Positions 30,001 through 33,000 of a stretch of 61,195 nt of DNA are shown here, piece by piece (within the stretch, counting starts at the first letter, position 1; every line of letters begins with the position of its first letter). The DNA lies in the IMG/VR virus record IMGVR_UViG_2523533514_000007; one strand, written 5' to 3'. Source of the DNA: a virus (lineage: Duplodnaviria; Heunggongvirae; Uroviricota; Caudoviricetes). The position numbers are program-made.

Positions 30001-33000
30001 CAACTATAACGGAAATCGTTATGGTTGCTGAGGATGGGAAACGACGCAATATGGTGTCCCTGCCACTTCGAAAACTTGCAGGCTGGTTACAAACCATCAA
30101 TCCCAACAAAGTAAAACCCGAAATCCGCGACAAGGTAATCCAGTATCAGGAAGAGTGCGACGATGTTCTCTATGAATACTGGACGAAGGGGGGTGTCGTT
30201 AATCCCCGTCGAATGAGTGTGATGGAAGAACTCAATCAGGCCTGCGCTGACATGAAACGGGATAAAAACATTGCCAGTGTGTTTGCTACCGGGCTGAATG
30301 AGTGGAAACAGGTTAAAGCCGCGCATGTATCAAAAATCCGCACATTGATAAACGAAGCGAATCTGCTGATTGATTTTGTCCTGGCTGATACAGGCAAAGG
30401 GAAAATAACAAAGGCGGATTGATGGAGTGGTGGCTAATGATATCGGATAAACTCATAACGCTGGCGAAGGGCCTTTGTGTAATCGTCGGTATTTCATTTT
30501 CACTAATGCTGGTTGTTCTTTTTCTTTCCATAAACTGGATGGCGTTGACTTCGGCAGGGCTGGTGGGGTGAGCATAAACCGAATGCTTTCCGCGTTTACC
30601 GTTATTCTGCTGGTGGTCTGTGGTGCGCTTAGTCTGGGGCTGAATCATTACCGTGATAACGCCATCGCTTACAAAGAGCAGCGCGATAAAGCCACATCCA
30701 TCATCGCAGATATGCAGAAGCGGCAACGTGATGTAGCAGAACTTGACGCCAGATACACAAAGGAGCTTGCTGATGCTAATGCGACTATCGAAAGTCTCCG
30801 TGCTGATGTTTCTGCTGGGCGTAAGCGCCTGCAAGTCGCCGCCACCTGTGCAAAGTCAACGACCGGAGCCAGCAGCATGGGCGATGGAGAAAGCCCAGGA
30901 CTTACAGCAGATGCTGAACTCAATTATTACCGTCTCAGAAGTGGAATCGACAAGATAACTGCGCAGGTTAACTACCTGCAGGAATACATCAGGACGCAAT
31001 GCCTGAAATAATTTTTTTGCAAATCACAAAGTCAATTTAATGAGCCTCGCGATACGGGGCTTTTTTATGTCCGCAGTAAACGCGCTTCACACGCGCGACT
31101 TATGAACACAGAACCTTTCAGGATGACCCTTGAGGATGCCGGTTTGGTGATCGGTGCCTTTCTGTGGGCCGGAATCCTGTGTGACAAGGTTCATCACTAA
31201 AAGGTGTGCACTGATGAATTATCCAACTATCGTTAACGGCATCGATTTTCGAGATCTTGTTTTTGTGACAGGCAACGAGCCGGTGACGGATACCCGAAAG
31301 GTTGCCGTAGCATTTGGCAAAGAACACAAAGATGTATTGCGGAAAACAAGAGCCGTTGTTCAACAATGCTCAAAAGAATTTGCAGAGCGCAATTTTGCGC
31401 TTTGCTATGAAAACAATGAGTTACAGAACGGTAAACCCCAGCCCATATATCGAATGACAAAAGACGGTTGGACGATGTTGGTATTTGGTTTTACGGGGAA
31501 GGCTGCTATGACCTTTAAGGAAGCGTACATTCAGGCTTTCAACTGGATGGCTGAGCTTATTCAGCAAGGTCTGGCGAATCTGGAGGCGGAGCGCAACGCT
31601 GTAATGCTGGAGTACATGAAAGAGAAAGATGTCGCCAGTATGTCAGGTCGTTTGCTCAATCGCTGGGGCAGGGTGAAGAAGCCTCAGTTGCTGGCAAGGC
31701 TGGACAGGCTGGAGCAGCAGGGGCAGATTGCGTTACCCGGATTTGATAAAGGCATTTCAGCCTGACATAGCCATGCGCCGTATCGTCGCCGTATTCCCGC
31801 ATTAACAGAGACTGCAGCCACCTTATCTGCGTGAGTGTGCGGGGATAATCAAAAACGATGCACACCGGGTTTTCTCATTTTTCACGAGATGGGAGCGATT
31901 TCCCGCGAAGCCGCCTGTCCGGTGCGGTGGTGGAAGAAACCGGATAAAACAACCGCATTGTGCAAATATCGATCAAATATGGTGCTGCTGTGTGAAATCT
32001 GAAAAATCACAGCGGTCATTATGCATCAGTTTTTAACACAGGACGTCAGAAAGTGACATGGCAAAGCTGGACTGGAAAAAGCTGGAGCAGGCATTCCGAC
32101 GCGAACATGCCGAAACGGGAATAACATTACTGGACTGGTGCCGGAAGAAAAAGATTAATTACAACACCGCCAGAACCCGTATAAAAATGGGCAAAATCGA
32201 TCATGAAATTGATCATAAAACCGATCATGAAATCGATCATGACATCTCAGATGAAGAACCCTGCAATGACGCGGGTTCCGGCGATGAAAAATGCGCAAAA
32301 AACTCTGAAAAAAACTGCGCAAATTCGGCAGAAACGAAACGGATTCGTGGTTCCCGACTTTTACCACCTTCAAACGCTTTTTCTCAGCGAAACACCCACG
32401 CCGTAAGACACCGTGGATATGCGAAGTATCTTGAGGCAGATAACCTCATGGATGATGCGTCCGACATGGTGCTGTTCGATGAACTGGTGTTCACCCGGGC
32501 CCGCGCACTTTCAGTAACTAAGGCACTTAAAGGGATGTTCGCCGACCTGGAAGAGGCAACTGACGTGGAAACCCGCGTTGCTCTTTACGACAAAATACTC
32601 AAAGCTGAACAGGCCCTTGACCGGAATATTGCCCGTATCGAGTCAATTGAACGCTCATTGCTGACGCTGGACGTCCTGGCTGAGACAGCACCAAAACTTC
32701 GTGCTGACCGGGAAAGAATCAACGCCGCCAGAGATAAACTCAGAGCGGAAACCGATATTCTGACCAGCCAGCGTCGGGGCGTTGTTACGCCTGTCAGTGA
32801 CATCGTGTCATCGCTGCATGAAATGAGTAATTCGGGGAGACTGGATGACATTCCGGAAGAATGAACCGCGATGTGATGAGCCGTCAGAAATGACCGAGGC
32901 CGAACAACGTCTGTTCATCATGACTAAACTGAGCAATCCCTGGTGGCGGCTCAATCATCTCTACAAGATACAGAACGAAAAAGGTGAGCTGGTCACCTTC

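Follow-up and report, generated by a model that had tools for sequence, protein, structure and literature searches.

What is the role of four GATC sites that stand exactly 12 bp apart inside a gene of the DNA packaging machinery of a phage? The question is raised by a stretch of 61,195 nucleotides of tailed-phage DNA (Caudoviricetes; IMG/VR record IMGVR_UViG_2523533514_000007), here called the window, in which such an array lies in terS, the gene of the small terminase subunit TerS. The initial annotation had proposed that the array is a pac site, the place where packaging starts, recalling the pac site of phage P1 and regulated by Dam methylation, and had offered a SeqA-binding element as an alternative. 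The window comes from a short-tailed phage of the 933W/P13374 type that converts its host to Shiga toxin 2a production (an Stx2a-converting phage), and the 1.1 kb around the array agrees with phage P13374 at 99.7% identity and has matches in 222 phage records, of which nearly all are from Stx phages. Judged from comparison with related phages and with P1, the array is probably the recognition part of a P1-like pac site, bound by TerS, at which headful packaging would start. Control by Dam methylation is a separate claim, about which we are considerably more doubtful.

Four phased GATC sites in the small terminase gene

The array and the gene that contains it are as follows.

32058..32864, + strand: terS, small terminase subunit of 268 amino acids (phrog_370, E=4e-125; so annotated in P13374 and in further Stx phages)
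32198..32246, + strand: candidate TerS-binding pac repeats, four direct 12-bp units YGATCAWRAMAY with a Dam site in each (from the sequence, from Tandem Repeats Finder and from the register common to Salmonella relatives)

A scan of the window places the GATC sites at 32199, 32211, 32223 and 32235 with a constant step of 12 bp, which confirms the exact spacing first noticed. The array reads CGATCATGAAAT TGATCATAAAAC CGATCATGAAAT CGATCATGACAT and encodes the peptide I-DHE-I-DHK-T-DHE-I-DHD-I (TerS residues 47-63 of 268), of which residues 47-62 are the repeat units IDHE-IDHK-TDHE-IDHD. Every unit contains the hexamer YGATCA, once as an exact TGATCA and three times as CGATCA (32198-32245, terS nt 141-188), and Tandem Repeats Finder describes the locus as a 12-bp tandem repeat of 4.4 copies (32194-32246, score 78). 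It is the tightest GATC cluster of the window, with four sites in 36 bp compared with 92 bp for the runner-up, and the sole equally spaced GATC run; under random placement the chance of four GATC within 36 bp anywhere is 0.018. GATC is scarce throughout the window (165 seen, 240 +/- 14 expected), and the pentamer GATCA is found four times in the 48-bp array against 48 times in the remaining 61 kb, a density ratio of 106-fold. The closest other GATC sites lie at 31971 and 33144, leaving a single GATC block. Since tandem duplication of one unit gives the phasing automatically, the window alone is insufficient here, and evidence for the importance of GATC itself has to come from comparative data.

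Word arrays at the equivalent place of related genes

The search for TerS homologs gave 379 proteins, and DNA was compared in 31 genomes, 80 viral contigs and targeted loci, individual loci being labelled L001 and so on. Nearly all TerS homologs have a short peptide repeat at the equivalent place, directly after the conserved N-terminal domain, which is SAQK or NAQK in other E. coli prophages, SDQK or NDHE in Salmonella and of an AQS type in Aeromonas. The commonest DNA word in these repeats is TGCGCA, usually with A-rich sequence next to it. Counted over 57 unique loci of this GCGC class, there are 338 copies in terS nt 121-310, which add up to 10.8 kb, and 92 in 274 kb of flanking DNA, so that the word is 93-fold denser in this part of the gene. 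All three reading frames are used, namely xxT-GCG-CAx coding for Ala-Gln/His (110 cases), xTG-CGC-Axx coding for Val/Leu/Met-Arg-Lys (29) and TGC-GCA coding for Cys-Ala (10). Where the linker has Ala-Gln/His, Ala is encoded by GCG in 116 of 121 pairs (25% elsewhere in the gene), and the codon before it ends in T in 115 of 121 (23% elsewhere). Almost all homologs, one distant one apart, keep a clustered word at the equivalent position, over at least 10 genera and often with irregular spacing.

The protein segment encoded by these arrays is a linker that joins the N-terminal domain to a long coiled coil. AlphaFold gives the array-encoded peptide of the window's TerS a predicted local distance difference test (pLDDT) score of about 32, and identity of the linker to close relatives is 26-55% against 94-96% for the C-terminal part.

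32193..32414, + strand: predicted disordered TerS linker, codons 46-119, whose coding DNA carries the repeats (pLDDT <50 at residues 46-109 and 111-119)

Because the word appears in three frames, the bias at synonymous sites is extreme and the disordered linker tolerates almost any sequence, the comparison indicates that selection acts on the DNA and not on the peptide, and that the position of the array is conserved across the family.

Sister arrays of the TGCGCA type are found in phages and prophages of E. coli, Citrobacter, Serratia, Yersinia, Aeromonas and Xenorhabdus (L001-L030, L037, L078-L120), and the literature searched contains no published description of them. They have in common with the window the orthologous position (terS nt ~130-260), the TerS fold and an A-rich 3' flank of the form AA-n-Y-G-NN-CA-R-A; those of E. 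coli also share the 12-bp register, with a C-terminal part up to 96% identical. They differ in that the central dinucleotide is CG and not AT, which leaves them without a Dam site, in that the spacing is often irregular and the words fall in all three frames, and in the recognition helix, which is ...ARR[YH]... where the window has ...ART[RQ].... The most distant TerS homolog, from Pseudoalteromonas (L031, terS 3001-3705, 32% identical, helix 3 YATARRYIK), has none of the words TGCGCA, GATCA and TTCGCA in its linker, these three being the words counted. The window itself retains traces of the commoner word around its GATC array.

32188..32193, + strand: TGGGCA, a one-mismatch remnant of a TGCGCA word (the window reads ATG GGC AAA where relatives have TGCGCA at terS nt 131, among them L001, L002, L030 and L035-L037)
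32292..32297, + strand: distal TGCGCA word 1, TGCGCAAAA, of the family-wide word type, kept in the E. coli GCGC-type at homologous CAKN/CANS codons and missing from a few Stx variants (L050, L070, L093)
32316..32321, + strand: distal TGCGCA word 2, TGCGCAAAT, 24 bp past word 1 (from the word scan)

The word changes together with the recognition helix

Directly upstream of the array lie the codons of the presumed DNA-binding domain.

32058..32195, + strand: N-terminal three-helix, helix-turn-helix-like domain of TerS, codons 1-46, presumed to bind DNA (AlphaFold model; distant likeness to the N-terminus of PacA, the P1 small subunit)
32160..32180, + strand: predicted recognition helix (helix 3), codons 35-41, YNTARTR (AlphaFold model; N36, T40 and R41 mark the GATC class)

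The model places helices at residues 6-20, 24-31 and 35-41 with pLDDT 74-87. Over 92 unique terS sequences the type of helix 3 and the type of DNA word partition cleanly into the following pairs.

Helix 3 YNTART[RQ]IK with the word GATCA, in Stx phages and Salmonella
Helix 3 Y..ARR[YH][IL]K with the word TGCGCA, in most genera
Helix 3 YSSAKRYIT with the word TTCGCA, in two frames, in Pectobacterium/Brenneria

On this sequence evidence the word co-varies with the N-terminal domain of TerS and with its helix 3. Relatives that keep the same C-terminal two-thirds and have a swapped N-terminal domain (phrog_1206, phrog_4151) possess neither TGCGCA nor GATCA. One of them (L186, 1629-1692) has GGTACG at terS nt 129, 141 and 154 and, on the opposite strand, at 187; another (L185, 1648-1708) has CCGTCC at terS nt 160 and, on the opposite strand, at 190, 194 and 202, or, counted as CCGTC(C), two forward and three reverse copies with partly 12-bp spacing. 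Because these swapped relatives have other words at the same place of terS, the comparison suggests at least five classes of pac specificity on one TerS scaffold.

The GATC class is present on two different backbones. With the E. coli TGCGCA-type the C-terminal part of the window's TerS has an identity of 94-96%, and with the Salmonella GATC-type one of only 65%. The N-terminal domain of the Salmonella GATC-type departs from that of a TGCGCA-type relative (L108) at four residues, D36N, R40T and Y41Q among them. In the helix-3 codons (nt 101-120) the two GATC-types reach 85% identity to each other, synonymous sites included, compared with 40-60% to their own backbones, while the codons upstream of helix 3 follow each backbone. 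As the same class thus sits on two backbones with matching helix-3 codons, the recognition helix and the adjoining array appear to form one transferable cassette. A rule by which a single residue decides between GATC and GCGC was considered and rejected, since P1 has ARR together with GATC and Aeromonas has N36 together with GCGC; only the pair N-T at positions 36-37 is exclusive to readers of GATC, and this holds for two independent lineages only.

The GATC class of arrays

Salmonella prophages with a TerS about 60% identical to that of the window have GATCA at the matching terS nt 142, 154 and 166, with further units at 178 and 190. Their units have other flanking codons (AGT GAT CAA AAA), and His and Gln interchange. 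In the 11 distinct units of the Stx and Salmonella lineages GATCA is invariant (11/11) and preceded by C or T, while the remainder varies; the Asp codon is GAT in 18 of 18 Asp-His/Gln units compared with 56% elsewhere. As these units occupy a single frame, the case for selection at the DNA level in the GATC class specifically rests on the codon choice and on the conservation across the lineages; tandem duplication inflates these counts, which makes the evidence weaker than that for the family. Four units are present in 39 of the 41 Stx-phage loci sampled, and variants with three (LC645418), five (L073) and seven (L038) units exist.

Mixed arrays also occur. One TerS that is very common in E. 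coli prophages (P0008 type, more than 1000 contigs; L080-L082) has one TGATCA unit among its TGCGCA words in exact 12-bp register (terS nt 165-201), and this array is possibly an intermediate between the GCGC and GATC classes; the existence of mixed arrays means that the central dinucleotide is perhaps read loosely. In the family as a whole TGCGCA is the usual word and ...ARR... the usual helix, and the GATC version, with the helix ...NTART..., is likely a specificity class derived within it.

A probable recognition site for packaging

The proposal of a pac site within the small terminase gene, recalling P1, has thus gained good support from three sides, which are the family-wide element, the co-variation with the helix and an N-terminal domain distantly like that of PacA. 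The partner gene is adjacent, and the gene order is terS, terL and then a P22-type portal gene.

32845..34551, + strand: terL, large terminase subunit, the nuclease/ATPase partner (phrog_2, phrog_38407; annotated as terL), overlapping terS by 20 nt

Phage 933W, whose TerS is 99.6% identical to the one studied here, is a generalized transducer; its virion ends resisted sequencing, a result read as terminal redundancy, and the name "pacase" was proposed for its terminase (PMC3752737). TerL proteins of the 933W type are classed as headful (PMC6029569). The records of phages phi315 and phi345, which end inside terS, were considered as evidence for a terminus and rejected, because they have merely been re-oriented to start at terL.

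In the mechanism that we propose, TerS would physically bind the repeats and packaging would start nearby. The helix-turn-helix-like domains of a TerS oligomer would bind successive 12-bp units, each with a YGATCA core and an A-rich tail, and would gain avidity from 3-8 sites; the bound repeats would tag the phage DNA concatemer for the first cut by the terminase, TerL would cut nearby, and headful packaging would proceed downstream. Because the repeats lie in the linker DNA directly downstream of the codons of the recognition helix, the specificity of the protein and its target would be inherited and exchanged together.

Several points weigh against this reading. TerS resembles PacA weakly (hhalign probability 56%). 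In contrast to P1 the site has a single GATC cluster, followed by just two TGCGCA words 57-81 bp downstream, one of which is lost in some Stx variants. The binding consensus of integration host factor (IHF), WATCAANNNNTTR, has three exact matches in the window and none within 6 kb of terS. TerL is not PacB-like (BLASTP of TerL against PacB gives E=3.6), the two being common only to the broad phrog_2 superfamily. The units of the GATC class all fall in one reading frame, and the number of copies is variable (3, 4, 5, 7), so that any requirement of a packaging site for copy number would be loose. In the literature searched we found no binding, cleavage or terminus experiments for this phage family, and no mapped pac site or PhageTerm result for Stx phages. 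Against these stand the conservation and co-variation described above, and on balance a packaging site remains our likely explanation.

The packaging reading has four competitors, and the one that survives best is an operator, at which TerS or a phage protein with a similar domain would bind the repeats and autoregulate terS and terL rather than direct packaging. Co-variation with the N-terminal domain shows a relation of protein and site and not its purpose, the site lies in the 5' third of the gene's own sequence, and in SPP1 the binding of TerS at pacL overlaps a promoter. This explanation is nevertheless improbable, as scans found no promoter-like or terminator-like signals around the array, a site about 140 nt inside an open reading frame (ORF) is odd for an operator, and the sole experimentally defined arrangement that looks homologous, that of P1, serves packaging. 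One site could also fill both roles.

Could the array be a neutral coding microsatellite, a 12-bp unit of linker DNA grown by replication slippage and without function at the DNA level, its GATC content and phasing arising as by-products? A tandem repeat in perfect register within a region of such low pLDDT, a variable copy number and GATC-class units in one frame, as duplication predicts, would all agree with it. Slippage cannot yield what is seen in the family, where homologs of ten or more genera keep the word in place with irregular spacing and in three frames; the synonymous bias (116 GCG codons and 115 preceding T in 121 pairs), the switch of the word with the N-terminal domain and the invariance of GATCA between Stx and Salmonella lineages whose flanks differ also speak against it, and we hold this explanation to be quite improbable.

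A Dam/SeqA element unrelated to the terminase, serving either for sequestration by SeqA or as a methylation-sensitive switch of replication or of late transcription, is very improbable. Four GATC 12 bp apart are what cooperative binding of SeqA to hemimethylated DNA asks of a sequence, GATC is otherwise depleted in this genome, and GATC sites in the genomes of Shiga toxin-producing E. coli (STEC) are 99.9% methylated (PMC6602927). Most arrays of relatives lack GATC and consist of TGCGCA, TTCGCA, GGTACG or CCGTCC, so that the conserved function has to be independent of Dam and SeqA, and the array tracks the recognition helix of TerS and not a replication or regulatory module. A SeqA-binding element, the alternative first offered, can thus be dismissed as the conserved function. 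A fold of the mRNA made by the palindromic repeats and regulating terS translation is scarcely credible, for although the 151-nt RNA is more stable than its shuffles (-34.7 vs -25.7 kcal/mol, z = -2.8), the predicted structure merely pairs neighbouring GAUC palindromes, the Rfam scan around the array gave no match, compensatory changes preserving the pairing were not seen across relatives, and the relatives' words are non-palindromic, in both orientations and irregularly spaced, which argues that no fold is conserved.

A packaging site in this place would have practical meaning. Phages of the 933W type disseminate Shiga toxin genes and are able to transduce DNA of the host, and a concrete 48-bp pac candidate is now available for them, which would permit the prediction of pseudo-pac sites and the design of packaging-defective phages or phagemids, as done for P1. 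The five word classes that track the N-terminal domain of TerS offer a natural series for the evolution of terminase specificity.

Dam methylation, SeqA and the methylases of the window

Would packaging at the array depend on methylation? Some Stx prophages carry a GATC methylase, M.EcoVT2Dam (PMC6602927). The PF05869 Dam gene that VT2-Sakai has in its nin region is absent from the window, and a phage-encoded Dam was rejected as a regulator in this phage; since it lacks a Dam of the VT2 type, the relevant enzyme would be that of the host. The methylases that the window does encode are of other kinds.

3446-4072, - strand: adenine methylase of the MT-A70 family, 208 amino acids, near int/xis (family match)
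15151-16104, - strand: restriction endonuclease of the PstI/BsuBI type, part of a restriction-modification pair (15151-17570) between the N-region and cI
16101-17570, - strand: Eco57I-like adenine methylase adjoining the PstI-type endonuclease, the other part of the pair

The pair corresponds to the EcoGIII (CTGCAG) system borne by the Stx phage of O104:H4 (PMC6602927), and for the 208-residue MT-A70 methylase no tie to the published M.EcoGV could be made. GATC-free stretches of 2-3 kb are a further feature of the window (for example 7983-11189, 23696-26447, 26528-29356 and 39061-41406, one of which covers the stx2 region), and GATC-free regions in Stx prophages have also been remarked on in the published methylome paper.

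Binding or cleavage by TerS may depend on the Dam methylation state of the array, as in P1, and from our analysis we regard this as possible but rather doubtful. Besides the missing Dam gene, mixed arrays have TGATCA among TGCGCA (L080-L082), TGCGCA words are retained in the GATC-types, and sister phages use TGCGCA without a Dam site, so that methylation control would not be intrinsic to the mechanism. One may speculate that R40T replaces a guanine-reading arginine by a threonine that fits a surface of A/T or methyl-adenine, which would make binding or cleavage Dam-sensitive, as in P1, and that SeqA could transiently mask the hemimethylated array. By its sequence the array, with four GATC 12 bp apart, provides what SeqA binding calls for, namely two or more sites within ~31 bp that can be hemimethylated, and SeqA binding to the hemimethylated array is possible as a secondary effect. 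A tentative extension of these thoughts is that Stx phages of the 933W/P13374 type start packaging at a Dam-gated P1-like site, where TerS would sense through its Thr-containing helix how the four YGATCA repeats are methylated, with helix and array as a portable cassette of ~150 bp for switching pac; we think it doubtful. If it were true, packaging and generalized transduction by toxin phages would be timed by Dam/SeqA status, and one short recombination would switch pac specificity, for example to avoid cross-packaging or satellite piracy.

Other features of the protein and of the window

Foldseek with the full TerS model against the Protein Data Bank (PDB) returned coiled-coil noise and no match at E<=0.001, a sequence-profile search of the PDB with the N-terminal domain gave nothing significant (the top hit being the helix-turn-helix of an IS21-type transposase, E=0.65), and Pfam and NCBIfam contain no TerS family match. 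The window is a complete toxin-converting prophage that runs from int through the tail genes. Its ORF of 319 amino acids at 24483-25442 corresponds to stx2A, by an offset of +549 from the P13374 annotation. Tandem repeats of 9, 18 and 36 bp (GGTCCGACA, GGCCCAAAGGGACGAAAGGGG and others; Tandem Repeats Finder rows 42134-42638) lie in an ORF of 635 amino acids at 41248-43155 and have the look of collagen-like Gly-X-Y repeats, as in a tail fibre protein. A single ORF of 2806 amino acids at the window's right end (52593-61013) presumably encodes a very large virion or injection protein.

Comparison with P1 and other pac systems

In P22, Sf6 and SPP1 the recognition sequence of pac is situated in or beside the small terminase gene and is read by an oligomeric TerS with peripheral helix-turn-helix domains, and headful packaging gives generalized transduction. 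The pac of P22 is a single asymmetric sequence of ~22 bp, and SPP1 has pacL and pacR boxes with bent DNA around a cleavage site that is separate. Neither of these two is known to form regular tandem repeats of a short palindrome or to involve Dam sites.

The pac site of P1 is closer. P1 encodes its own Dam-type methylase, whereas the window has the MT-A70 and PstI-type methylases only. We checked the pac of P1 in record AF234172, where it spans pacA nt 192-357 and where cleavage positions as well as an IHF site are annotated; it goes back to Sternberg and Coulby and is described in PMC10028697. GATC is found at pacA nt 195, 202, 214 and 229 and again at 325, 337 and 348, with hexamers verified at nt 194-234 and 324-353, and the two blocks encode M-I-I-DH-S-N-DQ-H-A-G-DH and N-DR-S-D-DH-D-V-I-T in two frames. 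Cleavage of P1 pac depends on the methylation state, and synonymous recoding of the hexamers lowers P1 packaging about 9-fold (PMC10028697). As a positive control for the comparative approach, 45 distinct pacA sequences were compared, and 4 of 42 hexamer columns vary against 40 of 124 elsewhere in pac. A relative of PacA 70% identical to that of P1 (L172, 1001-2188) keeps 6 of the 7 pac GATC positions and has additional GATC at nt 276, 365 and 391; these additions show that the P1-type architecture is itself variable.

The proteins are alike over a short length. PacA residues 2-44 (W..HKKNFARL...) align to TerS residues 5-47, with NTAR in the third helix of both. Similarity of the TerS N-terminal domain to PacA is weak by blastp (E=0.011) and by hhalign (E=1.1e-4, 43 columns), and the matches to PHROG families are reciprocal, TerS matching phrog_1711, the PacA family, at 3e-5 and PacA matching phrog_370 at 1.7e-4. 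PacA has 397 amino acids and is unrelated to TerS beyond some 45-100 residues.

The sites differ in several respects. P1 has two blocks, of four and three hexamers, about 96 bp apart and flanking the IHF site and the mapped cuts, where the window has a single array of four units; and Dam dependence is demonstrated in P1, while the window offers the presence of GATC alone. What the two have in common is repeated hexamers with a GATC core (TGATCA/G in P1, YGATCA in the window), 12-bp spacings among them (those of P1 are 7, 12 and 15 in one block and 12 and 11 in the other), a location in the 5' third of the gene of the small subunit, directly past an N-terminal helix-turn-helix-like domain, encoded Asp-His and Asp-Gln peptides, and hexamers that are conserved amid drifting surroundings. 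The array therefore looks, in all probability, to be built like the HEX4 block of P1 pac, and the long-isolated Dam-regulated pac of P1 would thereby be tied to a much larger phage group. We conclude that the element is likely to be a new variant of the pac architecture known from P1, here in a group of phages of medical importance.

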